Assembly: GCA_021151765.1 (NCBI GenBank)
Contig: JAGKWR010000002.1
Span: forward strand, 59,131 to 123,130
Length of the DNA: 64,000 nucleotides
DNA from: Alphaproteobacteria bacterium
GTDB taxonomy: Bacteria > Pseudomonadota > Alphaproteobacteria > Rickettsiales > UBA1997
Reading direction: 5' to 3'
Shown in pieces: positions 6,936 to 48,900 of this stretch. The position numbers were made by a program, and so were the translations under genes. The notes beneath the pieces were generated by a model that was given only the letters and a program-made list of their open reading frames with translations, was not told where the DNA came from and did no database searches. Each line of letters starts with the position of its first letter. Position 1 is the stretch's first letter.

Positions 6936-6946
6936 AAAATAAATTC

Positions 6947-7013
6947 CTGTCATCCTAAGCGTAGCGCAGGATCTCGTTAGATAAAATATCGGATCTCTTA
7001 CGCCGGATGACAA
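6947..7013. repeat. RPE-like palindromic element, copy B (degenerate)
   Basis: Left arm CTGTCATCCTAAGCGTAGCGCAGGATC and right arm GGATCTCTTACGCCGGATGACAA. The left arm aligns with copy A (CTGTCATCC.AA.CGT.AGCG...ATCTC) in the same orientation. It ends 14 nt before the ATG of the alaS C fragment. Confidence 0.6.
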
Positions 7014-28907: not shown

Positions 28908-31211
28908 TTATTTTAACAAATCTTCGACCACTGCCAATATTTTGGACTTATCATAAATCTTATCCAAATAATGGCTGGCACCAGCTTCAAGAGACTTATT
29001 TTTGGTATCCTCATCGTTATTGCTGCTGATCACTATGATAGGAATATTAAAGTTTCTAAACTTTTTAAACTGACTTCCTTCTCTAATCATTTTAGTCATA
29101 GTAATGCCATCTATGATTGGCATTTTTACATCGGTAAAGATCAAATCAAAATCCTTGTTATCCATTAATTCCAAAGCTTCTTGGCCATTTTCTACGCTGA
29201 AAATTTTGTAGCCGGCATTACGTAAAATACGATCTAAAACTACTCTATTTATTAGTTCATCATCACAAATCATAATAATCCCTTTATTGACTCTCTCATC
29301 TTTAGAAACTTGTGAATCTTGGCTACTCTGATTTGAATTATCTTTTACCTGATTCAGATCTAAATCAAACCACAGCTTAACTTTTGTGCCTTCAAATTTT
29401 TTTGATTCTATCTCAATTTTCGCTCCAATCGAATGCACCAAGCTTTTAACAATTGGCAGACCAAAACCATGAGAATCAACAACTTTAGCCAATCCAGTTT
29501 TATCAATTTTCGCTCCCTCACCGTCCAAAGCCATCTTGATTTGATTTTGAGTCATACCAATTCCATTATCTATCACCTCAACTTTAATCTTATGTTCCGC
29601 AAGCACGTGGCTTAACAACACTTTTACTTCAGTATTTTCGTTACTGTATTTGATGGCATTAGTGATAATGTTATCAAAGATACGTCTTACTACAATTTGA
29701 TCTGAGCTGATTAAAGGAATTTCATTTTCAAGAATTAAAGAAATTTTAACTGAATGCTTTGCTGCAAAGTTTTGATTGATAAAGATCAGCTCTTTTAAAA
29801 CCTCTTTAATACTAAACTCTTCAATCAAGTTTGTTTTTTTCAGATCAATCTTTGGTAAATTAATAGAAAGTAGCTCTTGAGCCATTCTAAGAATGCCGTC
29901 AGATTGTTTAAAAATCATATGAGAATATTTGGAAATCTGCGCTAAATCTTTTTCTTCATTAATCAAATTTGCCAATCCACAAATTCCAGCAGCATAGTTT
30001 CGTAGATCGTGATTAATTGATTTTGTAACTTGCTGCAGATCTTTATTAACTTTACTTAATTGATTCTTTAGCAGTTCTTCTTTTTTGACAAACTTCTTAA
30101 TCGACAAGATTGCTTTGGCTAATTGATTCATCTCAATGCTACTATATTCAGCAATCTCCACTTCATAATTTCCGTCAGCAATACTTTTTGCAGCTTTTGC
30201 AATCACAATAATTGGCTTAACTAAGCTGCTGTACAGCAAAAAGAACAACAGCAAAACTAAAACAACCAAAGAGCAAAAAATAATAATATCATTGAAAACC
30301 ACTTTATCTATTTCTGCCCTTTCCAACTTTTGGTTATAAATGGTGAAGATTATGTAAGGGTAATCCTTCATTTTATTATAGTAGATTGAGCCAAAACCTT
30401 CATCGCTAAAAACACTTACATCATCGATAAAACCTTTTTCTTTACTGGCGATTTCTAACTTTTTGCTATCCAAATATTTTAGAATTTCTGCATGGTTAGT
30501 TTTAGGAGAAGCGGCAATAAAAGAGCCATCTTTGTGCGTTAAGATAAAACTAACGCCATTAATATTTATAACCTCATTAAACTTTCTCTCTAAACTGCTA
30601 ATAACAAAACTTGTAATTACCGATCCCAAATATTTTCCACTTTTATCTACAACACCATAACCAGCGGGAATTGCGTATTTATAGCTATAAATTCCATAAA
30701 CTGGTTTTCCCAACTGTATCTTAAGAGGATTAGAAACTGTTAGAGGTATGTAATCGCGATCTAACAAATATAACTGCTTATCTAAATGTAATCCTTTGTT
30801 GCTCGAAACAATAAAACGAAACTTATCATTAGCCCAAGCAAAAGTACTGAATTGCATTATTCGATTATCAGGAATTCTATAACTGACCAACAATCTTTTT
30901 ATAAATTCATAATCATTCCACTTCTTGTTATCGACAATTTGTCTGGCGATAAAGTTCATGGAATGCTCGGTATACTCAATTGCATCGATGAATGTATTTT
31001 CAATTCTTCCTGACTGATTTTCTAAATTCTGATATATAGTACTTTTGATGTTGTAGTAATATTTGGCAAACAGACCAAAATAAATTACAGAACTGAGAAT
31101 AACAAAAAATGTGATGTAGATGACAAACTTTCTAGAAATTGAAAAAGGTCTTTTGAGAAATTTTAATAACCTTCTGATTTTCATAGAATCATCTCGAATT
31201 ACTAACATCAT
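28908..31211 (-). CDS. hybrid sensor histidine kinase with C-terminal receiver domain
   Basis: 767 aa. Two TM segments bracket a periplasmic region of about 270 aa. HAMP-like linker, H-box SINHDLRNYAAGI, N/G boxes ITNAIKYS, DNGIGM and GFGLPIV, receiver IMICDDE...DLIFTDVKMPIIDG. The start may be Met10 (31184). Confidence 0.85.
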   Translation of the reverse strand: MMLVIRDDSMKIRRLLKFLKRPFSISRKFVIYITFFVILSSVIYFGLFAKYYYNIKSTIYQNLENQSGRIENTFIDAIEYTEHSMNFIARQIVDNKKWNDYEFIKRLLVSYRIPDNRIMQFSTFAWANDKFRFIVSSNKGLHLDKQLYLLDRDYIPLTVSNPLKIQLGKPVYGIYSYKYAIPAGYGVVDKSGKYLGSVITSFVISSLERKFNEVININGVSFILTHKDGSFIAASPKTNHAEILKYLDSKKLEIASKEKGFIDDVSVFSDEGFGSIYYNKMKDYPYIIFTIYNQKLERAEIDKVVFNDIIIFCSLVVLVLLLFFLLYSSLVKPIIVIAKAAKSIADGNYEVEIAEYSSIEMNQLAKAILSIKKFVKKEELLKNQLSKVNKDLQQVTKSINHDLRNYAAGICGLANLINEEKDLAQISKYSHMIFKQSDGILRMAQELLSINLPKIDLKKTNLIEEFSIKEVLKELIFINQNFAAKHSVKISLILENEIPLISSDQIVVRRIFDNIITNAIKYSNENTEVKVLLSHVLAEHKIKVEVIDNGIGMTQNQIKMALDGEGAKIDKTGLAKVVDSHGFGLPIVKSLVHSIGAKIEIESKKFEGTKVKLWFDLDLNQVKDNSNQSSQDSQVSKDERVNKGIIMICDDELINRVVLDRILRNAGYKIFSVENGQEALELMDNKDFDLIFTDVKMPIIDGITMTKMIREGSQFKKFRNFNIPIIVISSNNDEDTKNKSLEAGASHYLDKIYDKSKILAVVEDLLK

Positions 31212-32475
31212 TAGAATTCTCTTTGGCTCGAGATCTCGACCTCATAACTTCCCTAATTTGCAGCTCTCCAGCCCACGCTTCTTCTAGTATTTTTGTATCC
31301 TCTAACGAAGGACGACGATTTTGATCATAAGGTAAATATAGCACATCAGATTCAGGAAGAGAAAGATCATATCTTGGAGATGATAATAAAGATAAAATAG
31401 TTTTAGTTGTACTTGTGCTATCATGTATTGCCTTTGCGTAACTTTCGAGTCCGTGTCCCAAAAAGTTATGTTTCAAAACATCTGATTTATCAAAATATAA
31501 CTCTTTAACTTTACCAGCACCAAATATGTACATAGATTCATTACGACCTAATCTAACAGATTTGAATATTTCCGGTCTGTAAAGAAGAGAATTACAATGA
31601 AAATTATTAAAATCCGCCTCTGGCTTAGCAGTTCCCATATCCATAACTGATCGAATATTCAATACACTGATACGGTCTAGTCTTCTGACTTCAGCATCCC
31701 CAAAATCAGTATAATCTTTTTCTGTGATATCACCAAGATCGATAGTGCCTTGTTCCACAGCTGTCAAAATTTCTTTAGAAACTTTTTTGCCTCTCCAATT
31801 AACCGGACTACCAATATTAACCACAGCCACTTTTTCAAAATATCTTTGAATCAAAGAAGGATTTTTACCTTCTTTATCCAAAGATTGCGCAATCTTATCA
31901 TACAAAAAATTGATGTGAGATATGTTCTCACGATGTCCAATACTAAAGCCAACTAAAAGCAAATTCTGAACTTTTCTAGGATCTTTTAACTTACCATCAG
32001 TAAAGAATCTTTTTTCTAAGACTTGTTTAAAGAAATTCTGTGACTCTTCTTCGTTTACGTAAGACTCGTCGTAATAATATGGCAGACCTTTTCTAAACCT
32101 TTCTTGTCTACCTTCGGAGTCTCTCAAAGAACTATAAACCGCAACTTCATCTTTGTATAATAAATGAGAAATCGGCTCATATGATTCAAATAAACTCTTC
32201 TCTGATCCACCACCACCTAAACCACAAGAAAGCACGATCGAAAAATGATTACTAATATCGGTTGAATCTAATATCTCAGATTTTCCTGCTTTATCAAAAG
32301 TAACGACTTTGCCAGCAAGGATATTGGGTTTACCCTCTTTTATCTTTTGGGGAGATTTACCTACACCAAGAGTATTATCTCTAATCAATTCTACTACATT
32401 CGGGGTCACAAAAGAACTACGACGCGCTAATGTTGCAAAGGATCTTATACTAATAATATTAGGTGGTTTCATCAT
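31189..32475 (-). CDS. hypothetical protein, possible alpha/beta-hydrolase
   Basis: 428 aa. GxSxG-like LLLVGFSIGH, a glycine cluster LSCGLGGGG that could be an oxyanion-hole region, and a late His (NFLGHGL). Pattern-level only. Confidence 0.3.
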   Translation of the reverse strand: MMKPPNIISIRSFATLARRSSFVTPNVVELIRDNTLGVGKSPQKIKEGKPNILAGKVVTFDKAGKSEILDSTDISNHFSIVLSCGLGGGGSEKSLFESYEPISHLLYKDEVAVYSSLRDSEGRQERFRKGLPYYYDESYVNEEESQNFFKQVLEKRFFTDGKLKDPRKVQNLLLVGFSIGHRENISHINFLYDKIAQSLDKEGKNPSLIQRYFEKVAVVNIGSPVNWRGKKVSKEILTAVEQGTIDLGDITEKDYTDFGDAEVRRLDRISVLNIRSVMDMGTAKPEADFNNFHCNSLLYRPEIFKSVRLGRNESMYIFGAGKVKELYFDKSDVLKHNFLGHGLESYAKAIHDSTSTTKTILSLLSSPRYDLSLPESDVLYLPYDQNRRPSLEDTKILEEAWAGELQIREVMRSRSRAKENSNDVSNSR

Positions 32476-32623: not shown

Positions 32624-33580
32624 TTATGACATTGCCAACATTTTACGCAAAGGCTCTTCGGCTTTCACTCGCAAAGCTTCGTCAAGTTGTAATTCTCCGC
32701 CACTTGGCGATTTGTCGCCATATTTTAAAACTAGGTAAAGCTTCTCTAAAGTGTTAAGCTGCATGTGCGGACAATTGTTGCACATCGTACAACCAGCACG
32801 ATCTTCAAAATAGCATTCATAGAACTTTCCGGTCGGATTATCACGTTGCATTTGATGAATGATGTGCGGCTCAGTTAGAACAATAAATTCATCACCTTGA
32901 TGTTGCGTCGCAAATTTCAAAAGCGCTGAAGTTGAGCCAATGTGATGAGCGTACGCCAACAAATGTTGCGGACATTCCGGATGCGCAATCACCTTAGCAT
33001 TTGGATGATTCGCGATCAATTTCACCAATTCTTTCTCGCTGAATTGCTCGTGCACCATACAAGATCCGTTCCACAAAATCATTTTGCGGCCAGTCACTTT
33101 TTCTAAATAACGACCCAAATGTTGATCCGGCGCGAAGATAATTTCACGATCCGCGGGAATTTGTTCGATAATTTTTTTAGCGTTAGAAGACGTAACGATA
33201 ATATCTGACAAAGCTTTGATATCGGCGGAACAATTAATGTAGCTTGCAACCAAAGCTTGCGGATGTTTTTTCTTAAACTCGGCAAATGGCGCTGGTTGGC
33301 AAGAATCTTCCAAACTGCAACCTGCTTTCAAATCTGGCACCAAAACTTTTTTGGAAGGCGACAAAATTTTCGCCACTTCCGCCATAAATTTTACGCCACA
33401 AAACACGATTGTATCCGCATCAGTTGCCGCAGCATTGCGCGATAAATCAAGTGAATCGCCAACGAAATCAGCAATATCTTGGATTTCGCCATCTTGATAA
33501 TAATGCGCCAAAATCACGGCGTTTTGTTCTTTTTTTAAACGAAGAATTTCTTCTTCCAAATTATGAGGAATTGCAAACAT
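32624..33580 (-). CDS. nadA: quinolinate synthase
   Basis: 318 aa. [22 protein letters not shown], three-fold repeat architecture and a C-terminal Cys cluster. Confidence 0.9.
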
Positions 33581-33582
33581 GG

Positions 33583-34572
33583 TTATAATCCAACGATTTC
33601 AAAAACTTCTTTTTTAGTTTGAGCGGCAATCGCTCTTGCTTGTTCTCTGCCTTGATCAAGAACTTGACGAACATAAGTTTGGTCTTGCTTGAAGCGTCTT
33701 AAATTTTCTTGAATTGGGCGTAATTTTTCGATCAAACTTTCGGCTAAATCATTTTTAAATTTACCGTTGCCAGCAGTTTCATATTCTTGCGCTAAATCTT
33801 GTGGCGACTTATTGGCCGCCGCCGAGAAAATATTTAACAAGTTGCACATTTCCAAACGCGACTCGTCAAAATTGATTGTTGGCAATGAATCGGTTTTGGC
33901 CTTTTTAATTTTTTTCAAAATCAAATCAGCGTCGTCATTTAAATTGATGCGCGATAAATCTGATTCATCAGACTTGCTCATTTTCTTAGCGCCATCTTGC
34001 AAAGACATGATGCGTTTGACTTCTTTGACAATCATCGGCTCCGGCAATTTAAAGTATTCGCAACCAAAACGACGATTAAAAGCGCCGGCAATGTCGCGAG
34101 TAAGTTCAAGATGCTGTTTTTGATCTTCGCCAACCGGCACAATATCGGCGCGGTAAAGCAAAATGTCGGCAGCCATTAAAACTGGGTAAGAGTAAAGACC
34201 GAGATTTTCATCTTTTGCTGATTTCTCTTTAAACTGCGTCATACGATTGAGCCATCCCATCGGCGTCAAAGTGCCAAAAACCCAGGCCAATTCTGCATGT
34301 TCAGCCACTTCGCTTTGAACAAATAACGTAACTTTTTTGGGATCTAAACCACAAGCCAAGTAAACCGCAGCAGCGTCAATCACGTTTTGACGCAGTTCGC
34401 GCGGATCTTGCGGCAAAGTAATAGCGTGCAAATTCATCACGCCGAACACGCATTTGTGCTGATCTTGCAAATCAATCCAATTTGCAATCGAACCTAAGTA
34501 ATTTCCCAAATGCAGATTTCCTGTCGGCTGAATTCCAGATAAAACAGTTTTCATAATTTGATTTGATTTCAA
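33583..34572 (-). CDS. trpS: tryptophan--tRNA ligase
   Basis: 329 aa. [16 protein letters not shown] (HIGH-type) and KMSKSD. Confidence 0.95.
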
Positions 34573-34591
34573 TTTTGAAGGGCGCGCACTC

Positions 34592-34615
34592 TAATTTCGT
34601 GATCTTGTAAGGCAA
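34592..34615 (+). repeat. direct-repeat copy of the rnpB promoter-proximal / P1 5' strand sequence
   Basis: TAATTTCgtGATCTTGTAAGGCAA here versus TAATTTCcacGATCTTGTAAGGCAA at 37004-37028. Identical 7-nt and 15-nt blocks. The two copies bracket the ankyrin gene 34701..36959. Confidence 0.7.
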
Positions 34616-34700
34616 CAAAGCTTTTTTAAAATCAGTTCAATTTGGTTGAAAAATTGCAATCTCTTTCAAATGGCTTTGCAAATCTATTTCCCGCGACAAA

Positions 34701-36959
34701 TCAGAGGTTCTTTCCTTTAGTATTTTTAGCTGAATTTTCTTCTTGGCTTTGCACTTTTTCACGAAAATCTGCTTTATGATTTTTACGTTCAAAAACTTTT
34801 TCGCCGCTTATTGTTTGAATTTTAAGAGGTTGCGGTGAGCGACTTGGAATTTCGATCTTTTTAGTTTCAAACTCAGTTCTTCCTTGGTCGGCAGATTGCT
34901 GATTTTTCGAAACTTCGTTTTCTTTATTCGGTTTTATCAATTCAGAATCTTGAGTTGGCGACTTTTGCTGCACATTTTCTGGTTGCAGATTTTTTAATTT
35001 TTCTTTCGATCTTTTTTCTTGTTCTGCCATCAAATAACCAATGTCTAAAACTTCAGATTTTGGCAAAACTTTTTGCTCTTTTTCTTGAGAAATTTGTAAC
35101 TGTTTTTGTTGTTGAATTGGCTTTATTGGTGCAAAATCTGTTTTGCTTTTGCTATCCAATACAACGCTGGAAGATTCTATTTTCTTATCGCCAGAATTAT
35201 CAGGAACTTTTATTTTTGATTGTTCCACCACTGTTTTGTTTGCTATTTCAGCTTTCTCAGAAACAGAGAATTTTGGTTCTATTGGTTGTTCTTTTTTAAA
35301 ATCAAATTGCACAGCTTTTTCAACAAGCTGAGGCAAAGTTTTTGATTCCGTGTTTTCTTGAGTTTTAACCTCAGATTTTTGTAATTTCTTACTATCGTTA
35401 CCTAACTCAAATACTTGATCTATTCTAACTTCAAGGCTCTGAAATGAAGTTTTTAAATCTTTAATCGGAGATTTTTTTTCGGATTCGACATCAAATTTTT
35501 TTGAATCTTGACCAACTATAGCATCACGTAAATCCTGAGTTATGTAGTTACCCTTGGCAATTGCTTGCGAAATTGCACTAACTAAAACTTCACGACGTGA
35601 AAACATCGACAACGCACCAATCATTGATGAATCAGCGTTATCAACTGCAATATCAATAATAGTTTTACTACCTTCACGATGATTGACGTTAGCACCACAA
35701 TTAATCAACAAAACTGCAATCAAAGACTGGCCAGATTTAACGGCATTAAACAGTAATTTATTGATATCTTCTTTGCTTAAATCGATTTGCAGCATTTTCT
35801 CCAGTTCAGCTATTGCAGCTGATTTGGTTTGTTTCTGTTCTTTATCGTTTTTTATTTCTGGTTGCGGTTTTTCTGCAACTTTTGACGGCTGAGAATTTTC
35901 AGCTTTTTCAGTATTTTGAATTTGACTTTGTTGCGCGATTTTAGCTAAAGCCTCGCTTAATTCTTGACGATTACTCGATTCTCTTTCTTTCGTGGAATAT
36001 GTTGTAACTTTTTGAGCAGTTTGGCTTTGAGATTGCAAATTTGATGATTTTTGTTCTGCATCACGAGTCTTTTGTTCTTTCTGAGCAGATTCTTTGGCTA
36101 ATTTTTCTCTCGCCAAAGTATATTCGTAAATCGCTTCCATTTCACGATAAATTCGCAACTGTTCTTGCTGCATTCTATCAATCTCAGCTTGCTGACGCTT
36201 CAAAGCTGCTGACTCAGCTTTTCGTTCTTTTGAATCATCATTTTTAGCTTTTTTACGAGCTTTTTCTTCTTCCTCTTTTTGGCGTGATCTTTCTTGATCA
36301 TTTTCTTGTTGTTCTGAATTTATTCCCTTAGCGCCATTTGCTTTCAAAACTTCTACAGCTTTTTGTTCACCAATCATTTCAGCAAAATCACGCGCCGTAA
36401 ATCCGTAAGAATTTTTTTCATTAACGTTAGCTCCGCGATCAATTAAAACCTGCATCTTTTCAATTTTACCGGAAAGCATCGCAGCCGTCAGCGGACTCAA
36501 ACCACATTCACCAAATTTACTTAAATCTTCTGGTTTAAGTTGGCATTTATCGAAGAATTCCATCGATTTTTCCAACGGTTTGCTTGAGGCGCAGGAAATG
36601 ATAAAAATTTCTTTAGCAATAGCTTTTACGCGGTCGCGACGCTGTTTCTCAGCTTCTACTTCTTTTTTAGTTTTGGGATTATTTGAGTTTAAATCTTGAC
36701 CTTCAGAATCTTTATCACGGGCTTTCGCACTTTCTTTTTCCAAAGCTTGCAGCTCTTTTAGATAATCGCGTAATTTTTTTGGCAAAGTTTCAATTAAACT
36801 AGCCGCTTTACGATTTTTTAACTTAGCAATATTTTCAGGTTGGAAGTTTTCATCGCGCAACAAATCTTCAATAAAGTTACGCAAATATTGCTCATCAACT
36901 TCTTCTTCCAAAGGTATGTTAAAATATTCGTCTGAATTTTGATTTGGATTATTTTTCAC
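34701..36959 (-). CDS. ankyrin-repeat protein with long charged coiled-coil / low-complexity regions
   Basis: 752 aa. ANK-like units (GLSPLTAAMLSGKIEKMQVLIDRGANVNEKNSYGFTARDFA; LLFNAVKSGQSLIAVLLINCGANVNH) separated by E/K/Q-rich stretches. Paralog of 40578..41612. Confidence 0.8.
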   Translation of the reverse strand: MKNNPNQNSDEYFNIPLEEEVDEQYLRNFIEDLLRDENFQPENIAKLKNRKAASLIETLPKKLRDYLKELQALEKESAKARDKDSEGQDLNSNNPKTKKEVEAEKQRRDRVKAIAKEIFIISCASSKPLEKSMEFFDKCQLKPEDLSKFGECGLSPLTAAMLSGKIEKMQVLIDRGANVNEKNSYGFTARDFAEMIGEQKAVEVLKANGAKGINSEQQENDQERSRQKEEEEKARKKAKNDDSKERKAESAALKRQQAEIDRMQQEQLRIYREMEAIYEYTLAREKLAKESAQKEQKTRDAEQKSSNLQSQSQTAQKVTTYSTKERESSNRQELSEALAKIAQQSQIQNTEKAENSQPSKVAEKPQPEIKNDKEQKQTKSAAIAELEKMLQIDLSKEDINKLLFNAVKSGQSLIAVLLINCGANVNHREGSKTIIDIAVDNADSSMIGALSMFSRREVLVSAISQAIAKGNYITQDLRDAIVGQDSKKFDVESEKKSPIKDLKTSFQSLEVRIDQVFELGNDSKKLQKSEVKTQENTESKTLPQLVEKAVQFDFKKEQPIEPKFSVSEKAEIANKTVVEQSKIKVPDNSGDKKIESSSVVLDSKSKTDFAPIKPIQQQKQLQISQEKEQKVLPKSEVLDIGYLMAEQEKRSKEKLKNLQPENVQQKSPTQDSELIKPNKENEVSKNQQSADQGRTEFETKKIEIPSRSPQPLKIQTISGEKVFERKNHKADFREKVQSQEENSAKNTKGKNL

Positions 36960-37018
36960 GGTTAATCTTTAAAACTTAATTTGCTTTGCAAAGCGACACT
37001 TTGTAATTTCCACGATCT

Positions 37019-37514
37019 TGTAAGGCAAGTAGATGATCGCTGGTTTTAGTTTGGTAACAAATTTGAAAATCAGAGGAAAGTCCGGACTCCTCGTCAGAAA
37101 CGATACCAGCTAACGGCTGGCCACGCAGCTTGAATAAACTAGAGCGGCTGAGGGAAAGTATCACAGAGAATATACCACCAACCATCATTGACTAGCTTGA
37201 TTTTATGCTCTCTTAATCGGAAGTGTTTAGTCGCTACCTTGATGAATTGGCCAGGGTGAAAACGCGAGGTAAGAGCTCACGCGCTTTCGTGGTAACACGA
37301 ATTTGGAAAAACCCTATCGGGAGCAAGACCAAATAGGAATGGCAGTTTAGCAATAAACAATGTTCTGACGCATGCCGTTCGGGTAGGTTGCTTGAGGTCA
37401 ACAGCGATGTTGATCCTAGATGAATGATCGTCCCGCTTACGCTTCGCTACAGCGCGGCTTTGCCCGTGTTGTTGAAGTGTTTGCGGACAGAATCCGGCTT
37501 ATTCTTGTCTTACA
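37019..37514 (+). ncRNA. rnpB: RNase P RNA, bacterial type A
   Basis: GAGGAAAGTCCGGACTCC (37073-37090), CCAGGGTGAAAACGCGAGGTAAGAGCTCACGCG, GGGAGCAAGACCAAATAGG, GGGTAGGTTGCTTGAGG, CCTAGATGAATGATCGTCC and GACAGAATCCGGCTTAT align block by block with E. coli M1 RNA. P1 pairs TGTAAGGCAAG (37019-37029) with CTTGTCTTACA (37504-37514). Ends are accurate to about 5 nt. Confidence 0.9.
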
Positions 37515-37690
37515 TTTTAAATTCCGGTGAGAGCCGGATTTTATTTATTTCTTCTGATCGCAAAACGATCAGTGGCCGGCTTATTCTTGTCTTACATTTT
37601 AAATTTCGGTGCGAGCCGGATTTTATTTATTTCTTCTGATCGCAACACGATCAGTTGGCCGGCTTATTCTTGTTTTACATTCATTAAATT
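37494..37690 (+). repeat. tandem repeat (about 82-83 bp, about 2.4 copies) of the rnpB 3' end plus terminator hairpins
   Basis: Units start at 37494, 37576 and 37659 (partial). Each begins CCGGCTTATTCTTGTCTTACA (the rnpB P1 3' strand). The two full units (1 and 2) continue with hairpin TCCGGTGAGAGCCGGA + T-rich tract and hairpin CTGATCGCAAAACGATCAG. Units 1 and 2 differ by 3 substitutions and 1 indel. Confidence 0.85.
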
Positions 37691-37777
37691 TAAAACTGCG
37701 TTTTAAATTTAGGTTAATTTCGAGTTGCTACAGGCGAAGTAAATTCGCCTATCCACAACAAAGTTTATTTTTTTAAG

Positions 37778-38563
37778 ATGCTTACTACCAACGAAATTCG
37801 TACAAAATTCCTCGATTACTTTGCCAAAAATGGCCATGAAATTATTGCGTCTAGTCCTTTGATTCCGCATAACGACCCTACTTTGATGTTTACCAACGCG
37901 GGGATGAATCAGTTCAAAAATTATTTTACTGGCGTGGAAGTTCCGAAATTCAAACGCGCAGCGACTTCGCAAAAATGTGTCCGTGCTGGTGGTAAACACA
38001 ACGATCTGGACAATGTTGGCTACACTGCCCGTCATCACACTTTTTTTGAAATGTTAGGTAATTTTTCTTTTGGCGATTATTTCAAAGAAGAAGCGATTTT
38101 TTATGCGTGGAATTTGTTGACGAAAGAATTCGGTATCAACCCACAAAAGCTTTTAGTTACTGTTTATCACAACGATGATGAAGCGGCAAATTTTTGGAAA
38201 AAAATTGCTGGTTTAAATGATGATAAAATTATTCGTATCGCAACTGACGACAACTTCTGGTCGATGGGCGACACTGGTCCTTGCGGCCCGTGCTCAGAAA
38301 TTTTCTTCGATCATGGCGATAAAATTTTCGGCGGCCCTCCAGGCAGCAAGGATGAAAATGGTGATCGTTTTATCGAAATTTGGAATTTGGTTTTCATGCA
38401 ATTTGAAAAACACAAAGACGGCAAAATGATTCCATTGCCAAAACCTTGTATTGATACTGGCATGGGCTTGGAACGTGTCACTTCAGTGATGCAAGGCGTT
38501 CATGATAATTACGAAACTGACAGCTTCAAAAAATTGATCGGCGAAATTCAAAAAATTGTGTAA
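37778..38563 (+). CDS. alaS: alanine--tRNA ligase, N-terminal catalytic-core fragment (split gene)
   Basis: 261 aa. [101 protein letters not shown] and DTGMGLERV. It ends ...[13 protein letters not shown], about where E. coli AlaRS reads ...LFRTLIQAVAKVT. Confidence 0.9.
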
Positions 38564-38625
38564 GTTTTGGAATGTAATTCAATTTCTTACACAGTCGCTA
38601 ACCTAGAAATGGTAGATTCCCAATT

Positions 38626-40575
38626 ATGAAAAAACCAAATATCAAAGCCTTCTCTCTGGTTGAAATCACGATCGTAATTTTAGTGATTGGTGTTATTATT
38701 GCTGGTGTGTTGGCGAGTAATGTTTTGATTAAGAAGTTTCGTATAGCTACGGCGCAGAATTTGACGCAGTCGTCACCGATTCAAGGTATTGCAGATTCGG
38801 TGTTGTGGTTGGAAACTAGTTTGGACAAGAGTTTTAAGGCTTCAGAGAGTGAGGATAAGTCGAAGTTGAGTGTGTGGTATGATGTTCGTGAGTCTATGTC
38901 TAAGAATAATGCTGTTCAAAGTGATGCTGCTTATGCTCCGAGTTATTCCAATAGTATTAATTATGTGCAAGCGGTGAAGTTTGATGGCACGAATGGTTAT
39001 TTTACGGTGGATGGCTCAGTTTTGAACAATACGAATTACACGATTTTTGTTCTAGAGAGGAGAGAGAGTAACAAGAGCGGTAATTATTTTATTGGTGATG
39101 CTTCATCTGAGAATCAATCAACTACGAATAAGAATTTAGTTTTAGGTTATAGTGCTGATGGGACGGTGATTCATTCGCAATCTAGTGATAATTCTTACAG
39201 TTCGAGTATTTCGACTTATGCGTCCTCAACTGGCAAGGCGCGAGTTTTTAGTTTTGTTCATGATAGTTCTGTGGGTAAGAAGACTTATATTAACGGACTT
39301 CTAGCTGCGACTTCGACTGATACTAATAATTTATCTGGGATGAACACTTTGACGATTGGTAAGTCTTATCAGGGTCAGATTGGCGAGATTGTGATGTTTG
39401 CTCGTGCTTTGACTGATGAAGAGAGAGAATCGGTTGAAGATTATTTGGGTAAGAAATGGAACAGCACAATTTTACGTTCTATTGGTGGATCTGCTTCATC
39501 TGGCGGTATTGGTGGAAGTTGTGTTGGCGGAACTGTCAGCGATTCGGGATGTTTGATTTCTTGTACAGTAACTGCTGCTAATGGGATCACAGCTACCACA
39601 GTTCAAGACGGATCTGGATCTTTAACTTGTAACGCTGCAGCAAATTTCACTGGTTCTTTGCCTTACTCCTGTGTCAACGGTGTCTTCCAATATACAGACA
39701 AAACAAGCTGCTCCTGCGCAACTGGTTATAATCTAACGGGCTCGACTTGTACACCAATTAACCCAAGTTGTTCAGGTGGCACCGAATCTACCACAACTAT
39801 TTCAGGAATTACTTACAAACTGCATACTTTTACATCTTCTGGAAATCTTGTTTGTACAGCTGGTGGCCGTAGTCAGGTATTAGTTGTAGCTGGTGGCGGC
39901 GGCGGTACATTTTTTGGTGGTGGTGGTGGCGGCGGCGGTGTCGTATTTAAGTCTAGCCATACTCTTACAGTCAAAACTTATAGTGTTACAGTTGGTAGTG
40001 GTGGTATTGCTAATACTTCAGCTACAACCACTCCAGTTAATGGTGGCAACTCAGTTTTTGATACTATTACCACTTATGGTGGTGGTGGCGGTGGAAATAA
40101 CTCTCTAGCAGCTGGAAAAGCTGGTGGCTCTGGTGGCGGAGCAAACAGGGGAGATGTTCCGAGCAGAGTTGGTGGTGCAGTTATTACAAATATCGCAGAC
40201 GGAGGAATTTCTTACGGAAACGTTGGCGGTGCCACAGCAAATATTACAGGTTGGGGTGGTGCTGGTGGAGGTGGAGGAGCTGGATCAGCAGGTGGTCAAG
40301 GAGGTTCTAACGGCACAGCAGCTGGAGAGGTTGGTGGTAGTGGTGGTAATGGCGTATCAATAAGTATAACAGGAACACCAACTTATTATGCCGGTGGCGG
40401 TGGTGGTGCTGTTCAGGGAAACTTAACCCCATCACCTGGTGGTTTAGGTGGAGGTGGAGCTGGAGGTCGAAATCCAGTCGCCGGAACAGATGGTTATGGT
40501 GGTGGTGGTGGTGGCTCAACTAACATACCTAAGAGAGGTGGTTCTGGTGTCGTAATTATTCGTTACGCTAAATAA
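38626..40575 (+). CDS. prepilin-type signal + LamG domain + Cys module + glycine-rich C-terminal domain protein
   Basis: 649 aa. MKKPNIKA|FSLVEITIVILVIGVIIAG. LamG_3-like region (LWLETS...SVWYDV...GQIGEIVMFARALTDEERESVEDYLGKKWN, about residues 55-280). Cys module at residues 299-382. Glycine-rich domain from ITYKLHTFTSSGNLVC...VLVVAGGGGG to GGSGVVIIRYAK. Confidence 0.75.
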   Translation: MKKPNIKAFSLVEITIVILVIGVIIAGVLASNVLIKKFRIATAQNLTQSSPIQGIADSVLWLETSLDKSFKASESEDKSKLSVWYDVRESMSKNNAVQSDAAYAPSYSNSINYVQAVKFDGTNGYFTVDGSVLNNTNYTIFVLERRESNKSGNYFIGDASSENQSTTNKNLVLGYSADGTVIHSQSSDNSYSSSISTYASSTGKARVFSFVHDSSVGKKTYINGLLAATSTDTNNLSGMNTLTIGKSYQGQIGEIVMFARALTDEERESVEDYLGKKWNSTILRSIGGSASSGGIGGSCVGGTVSDSGCLISCTVTAANGITATTVQDGSGSLTCNAAANFTGSLPYSCVNGVFQYTDKTSCSCATGYNLTGSTCTPINPSCSGGTESTTTISGITYKLHTFTSSGNLVCTAGGRSQVLVVAGGGGGTFFGGGGGGGGVVFKSSHTLTVKTYSVTVGSGGIANTSATTTPVNGGNSVFDTITTYGGGGGGNNSLAAGKAGGSGGGANRGDVPSRVGGAVITNIADGGISYGNVGGATANITGWGGAGGGGGAGSAGGQGGSNGTAAGEVGGSGGNGVSISITGTPTYYAGGGGGAVQGNLTPSPGGLGGGGAGGRNPVAGTDGYGGGGGGSTNIPKRGGSGVVIIRYAK

Positions 40576-40577
40576 AT

Positions 40578-41612
40578 TTAACGTCCCATTCCACCACCTT
40601 GGGAATTATTGCTGTGGTGAAATGGATTATTTACGTGAGATTGCAGCGATCCGGCATTGTCAATCATCTGCCCCATGACTTCACTAACTCCTCGTACGTT
40701 CTCTTTCGTAATCACACTAGCGCGATCAGCAACTATTGCTGTGATTGCCCAATTACCAGTTTTAGCAGCAGTTTGTAAAATTGTTTCTCCGCCTAAATTG
40801 GCGTTCACATTCGCTCCATCTAAAACTAAACTATTAACTGAAGTAATATCGCCACTTAAAATGGCATCGTGCAATTGTTCTTCTTTAGTTTGCGAATTTT
40901 GCGGTGATGTTTGGTTATCGTTTATCTTACCAAATAAATTCTGCGAACTGCTTTTAGCGCCATTTTCTCGCAATACTGAAGTTAAATCACGATCAATTTT
41001 CAAAATCGCAATATCCAAAGCTGACAAGCCTTCATTATTCAAAACATTGAGCTGCACACCTTCTGTAATTAGAAATTCCATCATCCATTTTTTAACTCCA
41101 ATTTTAACAGCAATATGAGCAGAATTATCACCATTTGGCGATCTAAAATTTACGTTTGCTCCGAGCATAATCAACCATTGCAAAAACTTTTTACCGCGAT
41201 TGCCCAACAAAGCTGCGCTTAAAGCGTTGAATTTACCTTTGCGATTAAATTTGTTGAGATCGGCTACATTAAACTCACAAACATCAAAAAAATTAGTAAT
41301 CTCTTCAATATCAAGGTTTGAAGCACAAGCTGTAACAAATAATTCTTGAGCAATTTCCCGCAAATTTTTTTCAAAATTCGCGCCTTCTTTTTGCAATTCT
41401 TTTTTAAGCTGCTTCAGCTGATGTTGTAGTTCTTCCAACCAAGCTTTTTGATCTAAGTTACTACCTAAATATTTGGCACCAGCTAATTTCTCTGCAAAAT
41501 TATTAACATAGTCGCGATCAAATTTATCGGCTTTGTTCTGCTTAGATTTTGGCTCATTTTTTTGCGAAGAATCTTTTACAAACCAAGAAAAAACTCTCAC
41601 AAAGAAAGCCAT
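40578..41612 (-). CDS. ankyrin-repeat protein
   Basis: 344 aa. ANK units (GDNSAHIAVKIGVKKWMMEFLITEGVQLNVLNNEGLSALDIA; LHDAILSGDITSVNSLVLDGANVNANLGGETILQTAAKTG). The N-terminal module is shared with 34701..36959. Confidence 0.8.
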   Translation of the reverse strand: MAFFVRVFSWFVKDSSQKNEPKSKQNKADKFDRDYVNNFAEKLAGAKYLGSNLDQKAWLEELQHQLKQLKKELQKEGANFEKNLREIAQELFVTACASNLDIEEITNFFDVCEFNVADLNKFNRKGKFNALSAALLGNRGKKFLQWLIMLGANVNFRSPNGDNSAHIAVKIGVKKWMMEFLITEGVQLNVLNNEGLSALDIAILKIDRDLTSVLRENGAKSSSQNLFGKINDNQTSPQNSQTKEEQLHDAILSGDITSVNSLVLDGANVNANLGGETILQTAAKTGNWAITAIVADRASVITKENVRGVSEVMGQMIDNAGSLQSHVNNPFHHSNNSQGGGMGR

Positions 41613-41620
41613 AATCAGTT

Positions 41621-43192
41621 TTATTTTATTTTTTCTTCAACCAATTTCACAAAACTTTCAATGCCAAAAAGTGCAATGAAAGATCCCATTCTTGGGCCTT
41701 GATCTTGTCCTAATAAAATTTGGTAAAGCGCTAAAAACCAATCACGCATATTCTTTTCATAACCGTGATTTTTACCAACTTGGAATACTAAATTCTGCAA
41801 CAACGCGCCGTCATTTTTTTGTTCTTCAGTTGCGTTTTGCAAAGTTGTAACAAGTTCGCGAAGTGCTGATTTTTCAGCGTCAGTAGCTTCACGATATTTT
41901 TTATTTTTCTTGATGAAATCGTTGTAATAGTTGATGGCGTTGCCGACCAATTTCGCTAAATAAGGCGAGTTTTCTTTGGTCAAACCAGCTTGGTATTTGG
42001 AAATAAAACCCCACAGAACCGAGTCATTTTCTGGGTTACAAGCCGATGCCAAATTCAACAACAGCGAATAGCTCAAGTTAAAATTAATCGCCGGAACTTT
42101 TCCTTCATGAATGTGGAAAGCAGGATTATCAAACTTTGCCGCCTCTTCCTGAGTTGGATAAGATGCCGCAAAAGTTAAATATTCGTCAGCCGCTTTTGGA
42201 ATTACATCGAAATATAAACGTTTGGCAGTTTTTGGTTTTTGATACATAAAAAGTGCCATCGATTCAGCTGGCGCGTAGGAAAGCCACTCTTCAACTGAAA
42301 TGCCGTTACCTTTCGATTTCGAAATTTTTTCGCCAGAATCTGACAAGAACATTTCGTAAGTGAAATTTACTGGTGGAATGCCGCCCAAGATGCGGCAAAC
42401 TTCGCGGTAAATTCTTTCATTTGGTTGGTGATCTTTGCCGTAAATTTCGTAATCAACACCCAAAGAATACCAGCGCGCGCCGAAATCAATTTTCCACTGC
42501 AATTTGCAATTTCCGCCGGTAACTGGAATTTCTTTTTCAACTCCGTTTGTATCAACGTAAATAACCGTTCCTTTGGCTTTATTTACACCTTTCACGCCTT
42601 TGTCGATAACAATTCCAGATTCTGGATCAATCGGCATAAATGGCGAATAAGTAGCTTGGCGTTCTTCACCCAAAGTTGGCAACATCAAGTTCATCAAATC
42701 TTCGTATTTTTCCAAAACGCGCAGCATTGTTGAGTCAAAGGCACCAGATTTATATTTGTCTGTCGCTGAAATAAATTCATATTGAAAACCAAAACCATCC
42801 AAAAAGCCACGCAAACGCGCATTCATGTGATGTCCGTAAGATTCATGAGTGCCGAAAGGATCAGAAACTGAAGTCAGCGGTTTGCCTAAATTAGCACGTA
42901 CCATTTCTTGTTGCGGCACGTTGTCTGGAACTTTGCGAAGCCCGTCAATGTCGTCAGAAACGCAAAACATTTTAGTCGGAATTTCCGGCGCAATTAAAGT
43001 GAAAGCGTGACGCACAAAAGAAGTACGTACAACTTCACCGAAAGTTCCGATATGCGGCAAACCTGACGGCCCGTAACCAGTTTCAAAAAGAACGTAACCT
43101 TTAGCCGGAGTTTTACCGCCAATTTTATCGTAAATTCTTTTAGCTTCTTCAAAGACCCAATTTTTGGGCAAATTATTTATATCGAGTTTCAT
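41621..43192 (-). CDS. lysS: lysine--tRNA ligase, class I
   Basis: 523 aa. Class I architecture with PSGLPHIGTFGE (HIGH-like) and KISKSKGNG (KMSKS-like). There are no class II motifs. Confidence 0.9.
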   Translation of the reverse strand: MKLDINNLPKNWVFEEAKRIYDKIGGKTPAKGYVLFETGYGPSGLPHIGTFGEVVRTSFVRHAFTLIAPEIPTKMFCVSDDIDGLRKVPDNVPQQEMVRANLGKPLTSVSDPFGTHESYGHHMNARLRGFLDGFGFQYEFISATDKYKSGAFDSTMLRVLEKYEDLMNLMLPTLGEERQATYSPFMPIDPESGIVIDKGVKGVNKAKGTVIYVDTNGVEKEIPVTGGNCKLQWKIDFGARWYSLGVDYEIYGKDHQPNERIYREVCRILGGIPPVNFTYEMFLSDSGEKISKSKGNGISVEEWLSYAPAESMALFMYQKPKTAKRLYFDVIPKAADEYLTFAASYPTQEEAAKFDNPAFHIHEGKVPAINFNLSYSLLLNLASACNPENDSVLWGFISKYQAGLTKENSPYLAKLVGNAINYYNDFIKKNKKYREATDAEKSALRELVTTLQNATEEQKNDGALLQNLVFQVGKNHGYEKNMRDWFLALYQILLGQDQGPRMGSFIALFGIESFVKLVEEKIK

Positions 43193-43197
43193 AAATT

Positions 43198-43419
43198 TTA
43201 TTTTGTTACAGCATTATCGTTATTTTTAACAGACTGATTTTGAGAAATTTGAACTGAAGTAGAGGGTGGTATTATTCCAGCTGGTTGTTCTGGATTCCAA
43301 TATTCTTCAATATCAGAAATAGCATTTGATCTTGTGCTACGTCTTTGCTCTTGATCAGTCAATTCTTTTTCTTCAAAAGAAGGAGTATGATTATCTTTAT
43401 TATCAGATTGGTTATTCAT
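43198..43419 (-). CDS. hypothetical small low-complexity protein
   Basis: 73-aa N/Q/S-rich ORF filling the lysS-mtaB gap on the same strand. No family recognised and it may not be expressed. Confidence 0.3.
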   Translation of the reverse strand: MNNQSDNKDNHTPSFEEKELTDQEQRRSTRSNAISDIEEYWNPEQPAGIIPPSTSVQISQNQSVKNNDNAVTK

Positions 43420-45967: not shown

Positions 45968-48900
45968 ATGAATTTCAAAATCCCTAAATTGCACAAGAAC
46001 AAAATTCTTCAAGCGAGTATATCGTTGCTTGTGTTTGCTGGGATATTTCTGATATTTAATACTATTTCTCCTCCTAAAGATCTGCAAAGTGCGGTTTCTT
46101 CCTGCGTTTCTTATACTGGCGCTAATTCCGGAGTTAATTGCGCCTACCCTCCTTGTGCTTTATTAACTTCAGGTGCTAATCCTGGGGTAAATTGTTTACC
46201 TAATTGTGCAAATTTAACTGCTGCAACTTCCATAACTGGTAACTCAACTCCAGTTGGCGGTGTAAATTGTTATTATCTTGATAAACCTCTGTGTACTGCA
46301 ACATCAAGATCCGTTTCGGTTATGGATATAAACATTCCTAATATCATGACCCCCCCTACAGCACCGGATCCTAGAACTAATTGTGCAGACTTAATTGATC
46401 TACCTCTTTGTGAACAAGTTACTCTTTCAACCGCGAATCCAACAGCCAATTGTGTAAAAGAATGTGGTGCAAACGATAATGTTGATACAGCAACGTCCGG
46501 ACATAATGTAACGTGTGTAAGATTTTGTGATAACATGCCAAATATAAATGGCACTAGTACCAAAATGACAGCTGTTCCTAGAACTTCTTCTTCCGTTGGT
46601 AATTGCGTTCCACGCCAATGTCATCAATTAGCAATCGGTACAAAACCAAACGGATCTAATTGCTCTTTGAATAGTTGTAATAAATTGTCTCCGGATGAAA
46701 TGAATCAGAGCAGAATACAAAATGAAGATGATACTAATTTTGCCCAATATTGCGATGGCAGCACCGTTAAATGTTATGAGTTTTCAGCAAAACAACTTCC
46801 CTTTACTAGATATCGACTAAACAACACAATGTGTCAGATTCATAAATGTAAACCAGCAACCACTTCTTGCGGCAGAATTGACAGTTGTACTGGATTTACT
46901 TTGTACAGTGCAACTACTGATGATACTTTGAATATCTCATGTAACACCACTTCTGCTTTAGATAACGGATCAACTCAGCAATATAGCAGTCTCTATTCAA
47001 AATATATTAATGTTGGTCTTCCAATCTCTGACACTTCTTTTTGTCAAGCAGTTGTATGTAAACCAACTTACTATCTTCCTTACCCTTGTTCGGCTGATGC
47101 TAGTGGAAATCTAACAGTTAGAGATACAAATTGTGATGCTTCAGGTGATGGTTCAATATGCGGTACTGTCCAATGTAGTAAGAATGATGAATGTAAAAAA
47201 GATCTAGGATTTTGTTACAAAACAATAGACTGCAATTTATCTAGCAACTCTACCAACTCTGTTTGTATTGCAGCAAATGGTTCTGACGTTAGTAATGATG
47301 GCAATTTTGAAGATGATACAGATTCATCATTTCATAGACCAGTTCCACTTAATAAAGCTTATAAAAATAACGATCCATCACAGGGATATAGAATTTCTGG
47401 AACCTGCTACACAATAAATCAAATGAAATCACAATCTGATGATAGTAGCGATGATCATAAATGGGGAGTAGATCCAGTAATTCCAATGTCTTGGCTCTTT
47501 GGTGCAAAAGATATAAGATTAGGCTATACTCATTCACAACTATCACCTGATCGTACAAGATCTCCTAAAGCTTGTGAACCGTCAAAGGTTGGTTCAAGAG
47601 GAACTGGTTATTCTTATCTGTGTGGCAATAAATCAAGTCTGTATAAACCAATAAGCGAGAAAAGCGCTTTTTACAAAGGATACGTATCTACAGAATTTTT
47701 GGATAATGGTAATACTATTGCCAAACTAAATGTTTGTTTACGATTCAAAAATACTTTAAGACCTGATGATAATACAATTGATGACTCAGAAACATGTGGC
47801 TCGAGAGAATGCGCCATAAGCTATTTTTCAAGTAATCCAATTTCTCAAGCTTGCGGTTTTGATTATTGTCGCACTCTAACAGTAAATTCAGTCAATCCGA
47901 AAGAATGTGCAATGAGTGGAGACTTATTTGATGTTACTCAAGCTAGCAACTCTAATAATGATAACAAAGCTTGTAGCGAAATAGTAGACAGTAACCTCAG
48001 ACTACGAGCTGTACAATATGGTAACAGAATATGCGCCTTTGTTGATTCATCGACTCAGTTTGCTTATAATAAAATGTTTTTTGATGAAAATGTTAAACTT
48101 GATGATGGAGTCACTTGCGTTAGCGGAACTTATAACCAAAAAACCAAAAAATGTGAAAATGGCAAAGATACTAATGATAAACCGGAAGAAGCAACACACT
48201 GGCGTACTATATTAAAAGTGAAATATACCGGTTCAAACACTGATCTGAATGGTTTTTATGATCGTAACGGCAAATTTATCAAAGCCCAAGAATGTGTTCA
48301 AGTGCCTCTCAGCGATTCACCACCAAACTTATACAATTTAGCTTCTTTACAAAATTCATCAAGAATGTTCACACCACCTTTATTCATAAGAGCAATAAAT
48401 TCAAAACGTGAAGGAGTACAAGTTTCATCAGATGCTTCCGGCACAACAGATTTCTTAGAACCTGAAGTAGTAGTTCAGTTCGGCACTTCCAATAAAACTC
48501 TTAGTATTGGCACTGGTTTAAGTGGCTATGAATCAACTCTTGATTCAAAAAGTTATGCTATGGACTCTACGGCTATAAAAACTGTAATGAATGGAATCAC
48601 TTACTCAGCTAATATTCTAATTAAAAAAGAATTTAATTCTGCAATCAATCAACCAACAGTTTGTTTATATCAAAGATTTAATTCAGATAACGGATATTAT
48701 GATATTAAAATTGGTTGTGCTAATAGATCGCTTCCAGAAATAGATAACGCCAACACTACTTCTCAAAGCTCTATTGGTGTTCGTAAAATTAGTATAACTG
48801 CGGATACTAATGGAGTTAATACTCTAGATAAAACTACTCAAAAATACGGAGATGCTACCCTGATATTTAAATATTGTGGCGATGCGAGCTGTTCAAATTC

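Follow-up and report, generated by a model that had tools for sequence, protein, structure and literature searches.

A predicted two-gene alanyl-tRNA synthetase and a conserved rnpB-containing backbone with variable gaps in an uncultured alphaproteobacterial lineage

Introduction

When ankyrin-repeat genes, a pilin-like gene and repeats derived from a stable-RNA gene lie together between housekeeping genes, are they the parts of one inserted islet, or the changing contents of short gaps in a conserved backbone? The question is raised by positions 34573–41620 of a 64,000-nucleotide stretch (the window; coordinates without a locus name refer to it) of contig JAGKWR010000002.1 in the Rickettsiales-labelled assembly GCA_021151765.1, in which rnpB and alaS-N, a gene for the N-terminal part of alanyl-tRNA synthetase (AlaRS), lie between trpS and lysS. 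An earlier note on this DNA had read these 7 kb as a single rnpB-centred accessory islet with ankyrin genes at its edges, and as a recombination or integration hotspot in which alaS was rearranged.

Here, we compare the window with related loci and propose, with good if incomplete confidence, that the stretch is part of a conserved backbone (nadA–trpS–rnpB–alaS-N–lysS–(MiaB-like)–BON) whose three short gaps hold members of lineage-expanded ankyrin and pilin-like families, together with a lineage-wide two-gene AlaRS, a duplicated promoter segment and an import of ~16 kb. Gap content would turn over by duplication, loss, replacement and homologous recombination, with no sign of a discrete mobile island.

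Results

rnpB and alaS-N in a backbone shared by related loci

The gene order given by the earlier note was confirmed by the open reading frame (ORF) listing, Pfam and Rfam: trpS (class I TrpRS, 33583–34572, minus strand; Pfam tRNA-synt_1b, E 4e-80), the ankyrin gene Ank1, rnpB, 3′-end repeats, alaS-N, a pilin-like gene, the ankyrin gene Ank2 and lysS (class I LysRS, 41621–43192, minus strand; Pfam tRNA-synt_1f, E 2.5e-121), with nadA (32624–33580, minus strand; ORF listing) adjoining trpS. The 496-nt rnpB (37021–37516, plus strand) is of class A, matching Rfam RF00010 over positions 1–367 of 367 with 231.5 bits (gathering score 100).

The backbone nadA–trpS–rnpB–alaS-N–lysS is common, whole or in part, to ten related loci, for which AlaS-N identities to the window are given in brackets. 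In L089–92 (87%), it runs from nadA through lysS to the MiaB-like and BON genes with zero accessory genes, while L008 (80%) has nadA–trpS–rnpB–alaS-N followed by an unknown 548-aa gene, and L009/L093 (88%) places a 488-aa gene of the Ank1-like family between alaS-N and lysS. Three further arrangements carry an insert between trpS and rnpB, bracketed by a duplicated promoter segment that is described below: L001 (91%), with an Ldh-like gene plus histidine kinase–response regulator (HK-RR) genes as the insert and a type A ankyrin gene between alaS-N and lysS; L100–102 (90%), with an Ank1-like insert and ankyrin genes of types A and B before lysS; and the sister genome L094/L095 (98%), with an Ank1 orthologue as the insert, a PemK toxin gene between rnpB and alaS-N, and then a 1132-aa gene, a 247-aa ankyrin gene and a type B ankyrin gene before lysS. 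L003 (87%) reads fabH–alaS-N–lysS without rnpB, and L006/L007 (82%) reads tRNA-Ile–alaS-N followed by an unknown 514-aa gene. The tRNA-Ile(GAT) gene of L006/L007 (9903–9979) takes the place of rnpB ~20 nt upstream of alaS-N and in the same orientation.

An rnpB orthologue lies directly upstream of alaS-N in L001, L008, L009, L010, L089 and L094 (Rfam) and in L100–102 (BLASTN). In the same nine loci, trpS is syntenic and nadA always adjoins; synteny of lysS was found in L001, L003, L089, L093, L095 and L100. Because the L089 backbone exists without accessory genes, rnpB and alaS-N are best regarded, on gene order, as core genes of ancestral adjacency rather than as island cargo. The proposal of a single 7-kb islet is thus contradicted at its centre, where the adjacency of these two genes is kept in seven of nine distinct relatives.

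What varies is the content of three gaps. The trpS|rnpB gap is empty or holds either an Ank1-like gene or, in L001, the Ldh-like and HK-RR genes; the rnpB|alaS-N gap holds no extra sequence, tandem repeats or a PemK/MazF toxin gene; and the alaS-N|lysS gap, where not empty, contains between one and three ankyrin genes, the pilin-like gene or ORFs of unrelated kinds. Across 20–58 kb, the window is syntenic with L089, L010 and L008 save for scattered inserts, and other gaps in that interval also hold window-specific genes (band-7, HK-RR plus a 428-aa ORF, a 1960-aa ORF and others), so flexibility is not peculiar to this stretch. Pfam scans of the larger ORFs between 28.9 and 44.9 kb returned ankyrin, aminoacyl-tRNA synthetase (aaRS), pilin-like, HK-RR, NadA and radical-SAM content only, and no integrase, recombinase or transposase was found in these ORFs or in the precomputed Pfam annotation of related loci.

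An alanyl-tRNA synthetase encoded by two distant genes

AlaRS has been described as the sole aaRS to retain a prototype architecture across all of biology, the split enzyme of Nanoarchaeum being the exception (PMC10036535). In the window, two intact ORFs jointly cover a full AlaRS. The first, alaS-N (261 aa, 37778–38563, plus strand), matches Pfam tRNA-synt_2c over positions 1–257 of 552 (E 6e-123) and encodes a stand-alone catalytic core with class II motifs 1–3, which align without gaps to E. coli AlaRS (residues 3–269, 392 bits, PDB 3hxu). The second, alaS-C (603 aa, 7027–8838, plus strand), sits downstream of rnj, 30 kb from alaS-N and in the same orientation, and carries the tRNA-recognition, editing/SAD and C-Ala/DHHA1 domains (Pfam tRNA-synt_2c positions 269–549, tRNA_SAD, DHHA1). 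The N half ends at E. coli position ~269 and the C half begins ~8 residues on, at a conserved ...IADH... motif, so that the halves dovetail at ~269/~277 and the cut separates the catalytic core from the tRNA-recognition domain; NCBIfam TIGR00344 is likewise covered at positions 1–247 by the N half and 269–847 by the C half. Against the cut-off of 457 of the NCBIfam alaS model, the N half scores below (399.6) and the C half above (505.6), which is why the public names are 'hypothetical protein' and 'alanine--tRNA ligase', respectively.

The 120 best homologues of the N half (76–91% identity) all measure 253–307 aa, and those of the C half (55–96% identity) mostly 575–675 aa with a maximum of 714 aa; no full-length AlaRS is among the best homologues listed for either half. 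Among Genome Taxonomy Database (GTDB) species-representative loci, of which 34 of the 80 returned were checked, L009 and L010 alone are split and alone have an ORF stop at the split site, while most of the others measure 860–900 aa, including loci of Rhizobiales, Sphingomonadales, Pelagibacter, a Rickettsiaceae metagenome-assembled genome (MAG) and a Holosporales MAG. A representative-library search with alaS-N was uninformative on independent splits, its clustering at 50% identity merging the split lineage with truncated fragments.

Between the window and the sister genome, alaS-N shows a nonsynonymous divergence (dN) of 0.012, a synonymous divergence (dS) of 0.44 and a dN/dS of 0.027. Its partner, alaS-C, is a separate gene of ~600 aa in this lineage, constantly beside rnj, and the context aspS–aminotransferase–coaX–rnj–alaS-C is kept in L099, a relative at 69% identity. 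With both halves in conserved contexts and under strong purifying selection, the split appears to be lineage-wide and not a local or recent event, which does not support the alaS rearrangement that had been assigned to this locus. Full-length alaS loci of other Alphaproteobacteria share no neighbour with either half, and thus gave no indication of an ancestral alaS position.

We infer that the two products, as putative subunits, assemble into a working enzyme. Charging of tRNA-Ala by both halves has indirect support in the low dN/dS, the lineage-wide conservation and the lack of a full-length paralogue among the top hits. A stable-RNA gene precedes alaS-N, namely rnpB in most relatives and tRNA-Ile in one, and because alaS-N lies directly downstream in the same orientation in most relatives, its expression may depend on the promoter and RNA processing of that gene. 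Taken together, we lean slightly towards a view in which this uncultured Rickettsiales-labelled lineage of Alphaproteobacteria relies on a two-subunit AlaRS as its sole AlaRS, with a split independent of that in Nanoarchaeota, overlooked through the name 'hypothetical protein', and with expression of alaS-N perhaps tied to the upstream stable-RNA promoter or processing. Independence from the Nanoarchaeota would follow from the different site of the cut, here at the boundary of catalytic core and tRNA-recognition domain. In the literature searched, nothing relevant was found on a split alaS or AlaRS in bacteria, and only the Nanoarchaeota split was described.

The spacer between rnj and alaS-C (6940–7010) is filled by a palindromic element of ~70 nt that resembles a miniature inverted-repeat transposable element (MITE; TGTCATCC...GGATGACA). 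It occurs once in the window and is found also in L089 (~9880–9950) and L010 (~9845–9935), while the same spacer measures just 4 nt in L099.

Resident ankyrin genes and a pilin-like gene specific to this genome

Both edge genes encode ankyrin-repeat proteins: Ank1 (752 aa, 34701–36959, minus strand; Pfam Ank_2, E 8e-8, 33.1 bits) and Ank2 (344 aa, 40578–41612, minus strand; Ank_2, E 6e-13, 49.6 bits) both exceed the cut-off of 27.3 bits. As the earlier note held, they are paralogues in the same orientation, with 36% identity over 108 aa (E 3e-15) in a match that takes in a non-ankyrin (ANK) N-terminal stretch; the tail of Ank1 is of low complexity and rich in K, E and Q. Orthologues of Ank1 occupy the same trpS|rnpB gap in L094 and L100–102. 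The 783-aa gene of the sister is 93% identical in amino acids over the codon alignment (89% by BLASTP) with a dN/dS of 0.34, and the L100 and L101 genes are 37–38% identical. Ank2, of type A, is 49–50% identical over its full length to L001_Ank and L100_367 in the alaS-N|lysS gap, and 34% identical to the 346-aa type B gene of the sister. Types A and B stand in tandem in L100, and the window keeps A and the sister B; by this comparison, the 34% identity reflects paralogy, the window having lost B and the sister A. The start codon of Ank2 lies 8 nt past the lysS stop, and because of this closeness the two are probably co-transcribed.

Both genes are common to relatives at dS above 1, so that the ankyrin genes are long-standing gap residents and poor candidates for islet borders. 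Ankyrin paralogues have probably occupied the trpS|rnpB and alaS-N|lysS gaps since before the species diverged, with turnover through duplication in tandem, loss of different copies in different genomes and fast sequence change. Their GC contents at third codon positions (GC3; Ank1 0.238, Ank2 0.293) fall within the 0.23–0.44 of the window. These paralogues are likely effectors. A leucine-rich-repeat protein with a NEL (novel E3 ubiquitin ligase) domain is encoded at 4678–6450 of L003, and together with the many ankyrin genes it points to a eukaryote-associated lifestyle of the lineage; the low-GC source organism is probably host-associated.

The pilin-like gene (649 aa, 38626–40575, plus strand; Pfam Gly_rich_2, E 4e-15, and N_methyl below cut-off) encodes a prepilin-type N-terminus (KA|FSLVE), a ConA/LamG-like lectin domain, a Cys-rich linker and a Gly-rich C-terminal domain. 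The N-terminus, KA|FSLVEITIVILVIG, fits the prepilin motif (A−1, F+1, E+5), although N_methyl reaches 18.8 bits against a cut-off of 21.2. An AlphaFold2 model (pLDDT 84.7) places a long N-terminal helix at residues 11–48, followed by a beta jelly-roll at ~58–280 and a beta-rich, Gly-rich C-terminal part. In Foldseek, the jelly-roll matched 5hon_A (E 6e-7, TMt 0.64, root-mean-square deviation 3.0 Å), as expected of a ConA-like fold, with further matches to a trans-sialidase lectin and BoNT Hc domains. The protein itself has no direct Pfam match to LamG; PF13385 was found only in homologues and, below threshold, in a paralogue in the window. This paralogue, o299, is a second prepilin-type gene (299 aa, 10286–11185, minus strand) beside glmM, with N_methyl at 22 bits and Laminin_G_3 below threshold, and it shares 35% identity with the first 285 aa of the pilin-like protein. 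From the model and motifs, we predict that the product is probably a pilus-borne or surface lectin-like protein.

The family has over 1000 members, which combine a prepilin N-terminus with a Gly_rich_2 domain and often match Laminin_G_3 as well, and is common in MAGs of the same taxonomic labels, often with several members on one contig. The closest homologue, 78% identical over 62% of the length, lies in a dnaJ|rlmN gap, and the gene is absent from the alaS-N|lysS gap in every relative examined. It thus appears to be the sole gene of the stretch that is specific to this genome at this site, and the window alone would have gained it between alaS-N and Ank2. Conservation of gene order in divergent relatives, which the earlier note had set against its own proposal, accordingly holds for the backbone and the ankyrin genes and fails for this gene. 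Its composition had been called foreign-looking: GC is indeed raised (0.438 against 0.376 for the window), because 19.1% glycine lifts the GC of second codon positions (GC2) to 0.557, but its GC3 of 0.286 lies within the range of the other window genes, and the composition is native, foreign in look only. None of the three accessory genes thus has the composition of a foreign island. The convergent pair formed with Ank2 was as reported, with 2 nt between the stop codons (...TAA AT TTA...). Between 34400 and 41000, the GC skew changes sign at ~37–40.7 kb. The change tracks gene orientation, the plus strand carrying only rnpB, alaS-N and the pilin-like gene there, with no replication-related switch, and the pilin-like gene contributes further through its G-rich glycine codons.

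Repeats at both ends of rnpB

That rnpB-derived repeats occur on both sides of rnpB was upheld, and the two sides differ in kind. The 5′ copy was found by aligning gap edges across relatives, a BLAST query from rnpB +1 matching the 3′ copies only. The left direct repeat (34592–34615, plus strand), a copy of the rnpB promoter and the first ~10 nt of the gene, aligns with the right repeat (37004–37028, plus strand), which comprises the working promoter and 5′ end of rnpB, at 22 of 25 columns (score 33); none of 500 shuffles reached this score, the best being 32. The motif TCTTGTAAGGCAA (rnpB −5 to +8) occurs twice in all six genomes with a trpS|rnpB insert and once in all four without, every trpS-side insert being bracketed by the duplicated trpS/rnpB promoter segment. 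In L001, a repeat of 69 nt with a near-perfect core brackets different cargo, the Ldh-like and HK-RR genes. A 20-nt rnpB match by BLAST at 57883–57902 (E 0.006) lies within argH and was treated as chance.

Where no insert separates them, trpS and rnpB are divergently transcribed from a ~45-nt spacer. Read on the minus strand, the copy nearest trpS has the form TTGCCT-N17 followed by TAAAAT, TAAGGT or TAGAGT, depending on the genome (TAGAGT in the window), and TTGCCT is the complement of rnpB +4 to +9. This minus-strand site of the left repeat looks promoter-like and directed at trpS, which suggests that the trpS and rnpB promoters overlap inside the ~45-nt spacer. Only inserts that duplicate the promoter segment would then leave both essential genes expressed, and selection would keep both copies.

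At the other end, the last 23 nt of rnpB recur at 37576–37598 and 37659–37681 (BLAST), within an 82-nt tandem repeat of 2.4 copies (37494–37691, plus strand; Tandem Repeats Finder score 343, 93% matches), where a repeat search also found families D3 and D4. Besides the terminal 23 nt of rnpB, each unit contains two hairpins, the first terminator-like and with a T-run; the terminator-like sites lie at 37523–37538 and 37605–37620 (fold z-score −3.1). Because 59 nt that do not belong to rnpB are duplicated too, the copies represent a tandem duplication. The rnpB terminus is present three times in the window, twice in the sister, twice in L010 (89 nt apart) and once in L001, L008, L009, L089 and L100–102. 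We propose that the terminal 23 nt and the terminator were tandemly duplicated, and that the same point served as the indel site at which the PemK gene lies in the sister.

In L010, the pair of rnpB termini is followed by a MITE-like palindrome; palindromes related to the one beside alaS-C (CTGTCATTCTGAGCG..., TCGTCATCC...) lie just downstream of rnpB in L010 and L089. The PemK/MazF-family toxin gene of the sister (127 aa; L094 5449–5832, L095 19609–19992) sits between the duplicated rnpB 3′ end and alaS-N, is solitary without an obvious antitoxin, and is missing from the window. A degenerate third rnpB 3′ copy after this gene was rejected, 248 of 500 shuffles scoring as well. Reading the 59-nt spacers as integron cassettes was also rejected: no IntI was found and the spacers are duplicated rnpB terminator, attC sites not having been formally searched.

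A step in synonymous divergence at the 3′ repeats

The window and the sister contig are 95–97% identical from nadA to 37629, inside the second repeat unit, where the match breaks. To the left, dS is low (nadA 0.17, trpS 0.11, Ank1 0.10), then high in a middle block (alaS-N 0.44, lysS 0.43, MiaB-like 0.49, BON 0.36, o1960 0.68, asparaginase 0.34) and low again to the right (queH 0.18, fpg 0.12). The jump is 3–4-fold, from 0.10–0.17 to 0.34–0.68, and falls exactly at the rnpB 3′ repeats. From these blocks, a tract of ~16 kb (37.6 to ~53 kb), which far exceeds the 7-kb islet in size, appears to have a different history, for which import by homologous recombination would be the simplest explanation. 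Comparison with L001 and L089, from which both genomes are equally distant at saturated dS (above 1), singled out neither a donor nor an importing genome.

The break is consistent with a recombination breakpoint at the rnpB 3′ repeats and is the best support for the hotspot idea. That idea thus survives in part: gap contents vary and dS jumps at the repeats, but no integrase, transposase or foreign composition was seen among the scanned ORFs.

Alternative explanations

A single ~7-kb accessory islet, integrated or recombined around rnpB in the same event that broke alaS, would account for rnpB-derived repeats on either side of rnpB, for accessory genes at both edges and for the raised GC of the pilin-like gene. 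We nevertheless consider it very improbable: the rnpB–alaS-N adjacency and the alaS split are shared at dS above 1 and at AlaS-N identities down to 79%, L089 has the backbone without accessory genes, the ankyrin genes are orthologous gap residents, the GC3 of the pilin-like gene is native, and alaS-C stands in a separate conserved context at a distance of 30 kb. It is unlikely, too, that the direct repeats are attachment (att) sites of integrase-bearing elements that hit the 5′ and 3′ ends of rnpB and later lost their integrases, leaving Ank1, the Ldh-like and HK-RR genes and PemK as cargo. Two different cargoes do lie at an identical point within the same repeat, which extends to 69 nt in L001; the rnpB 3′ end is present two to three times in the window, L094 and L010; and in L094 a toxin gene typical of mobile DNA follows the second copy. 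Only the 5′ repeats, however, enclose cargo (Ank1 or, in L001, other genes), whereas the 3′ copies are head-to-tail 82-nt units that adjoin directly, their 59 non-rnpB nt included in the duplication. Downstream of PemK, no rnpB-like copy stands out, roughly half of the shuffles scoring equally; the Pfam scans of larger window ORFs and the annotation of related loci contain no integrase or recombinase; Ank1-like genes come from a resident paralogue family; and the composition is native.

Two further explanations concern single elements of our reading. If alaS-N were a dead remnant, with AlaRS activity supplied by another gene, its length (only 30% of a normal AlaRS) and its score below the NCBIfam cut-off would be expected, but this is scarcely credible for an intact ORF of conserved length that occurs in more than 120 sequence clusters at 76–91% identity with a dN/dS of 0.027 and whose catalytic-core positions all align to E. 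coli 3–269 with ungapped motifs. The C half, moreover, has no catalytic core and is equally conserved, and no full-length AlaRS of the lineage is among the top hits. The apparent mosaic, that is, the dS jump and the sister-specific genes, might instead be an assembly chimera of co-occurring strains: the sample of the sister (GCA_013572995.1) holds a second related strain with the locus, L101, and the break lies at a short repeat, where assemblers can switch strains. This appears quite unlikely, as dS is low again on both flanks, which would need two switches in one contig, the proteins of the window are found on two contigs from two sources (NCBI and Logan), and gap contents differ across many independent assemblies.

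Several points weigh against the conserved backbone with changing gaps, the two-gene AlaRS and the import as we propose them. All comparison genomes are MAGs or metagenome contigs, and they were compared by gene order and sequence divergence; with two related strains co-occurring in the sample of the sister, the high-dS block could still stem from a chimeric metagenome contig. The pattern of six genomes with and four without a second promoter copy may go back to one ancestral event inherited by one subclade, with recurrent insertion unneeded, and a generic promoter scan found the region no richer in sites than shuffled sequence, so that the overlap of promoters rests on consensus-like hexamers. 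For the AlaRS, assembly and activity of the halves are predicted from sequence, and with only 64 kb of the genome read, a full-length alaS elsewhere is excluded only indirectly.

Other features of the window

A 1960-aa ORF (45968–51850, plus strand) has no Pfam match, a signal-like N-terminus, Cys-rich repeats and a GC2 of 0.51; it is absent at this position in L089 and L001, and at 0.68, the dS against the 1977-aa version in the sister exceeds that of every other gene of the locus. A 73-aa ORF (43198–43419, minus strand), placed between lysS and the MiaB-like gene, is only 26% identical to the 70-aa ORF in the corresponding position of the sister, with flanking genes at 93–95%, and is either hypervariable or not a real gene. 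A hybrid HK/RR (767 aa) and a 428-aa ORF without a Pfam match (28908–32475, minus strand) lie between a 376-aa ORF (27740–28870) and nadA. L089, L010 and L008 carry no insert here, so that this is a further flexible gap outside the stretch studied.

Discussion

Our comparison suggests how accessory genes can enter where two essential genes have only a very short regulatory spacer in common, namely with the promoter segment duplicated on either side of the insert. Like genomic islands at tRNA and tmRNA genes, the locus has variable cargo beside a stable-RNA gene and direct repeats from the ends of that gene; unlike them, it has a native composition, cargo made up mostly of resident paralogues, a 5′ repeat that includes the promoter and 3′ repeats in tandem without cargo between, and an integrase was not found. 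Nothing relevant on rnpB as an integration site was found in the literature searched.

The ankyrin genes resemble the Ank effectors of the Legionella Dot/Icm system in forming fast-evolving families of ANK-repeat paralogues scattered among housekeeping genes. Matches to NCBIfam AnkH and AnkY are weak and far below cut-off, and the identity shared with known effectors is limited to generic ANK repeats. The pilin-like protein shares with type IV pilins and type II secretion system pseudopilins a class III signal-like N-terminus and a long hydrophobic α1 helix, as modelled, but ConA/LamG lectin and Gly_rich_2 domains replace the pilin head and N_methyl stays below cut-off; no description of this prepilin–LamG–Gly-rich family was found in the literature searched.

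If the two-gene AlaRS is real, it offers researchers of aaRS a second independent natural experiment on a split AlaRS, in which the catalytic core and the domain that, by E. coli AlaRS, reads G3:U70 are on separate polypeptides, and so bears on how acceptor-stem recognition is coupled to catalysis. In practical terms, the halves are mis-called in these MAGs, which can affect completeness estimates and metabolic calls. In N. equitans, AlaRS-α (NEQ547) and AlaRS-β (NEQ211) jointly give G3:U70-specific activity (PMC11392972, PMC10036535), and the α subunit is the counterpart of E. coli AlaRS368N, residues 1–368 (PMC11392972). The activity of that pair was measured, whereas the present one is predicted from its genes, and it is bacterial, not archaeal. 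As in the Nanoarchaeota, two separate, distant genes encode the enzyme, but the cut falls at a domain boundary (E. coli ~269) instead of inside the tRNA-recognition domain (~368), which places that whole domain on the C half.

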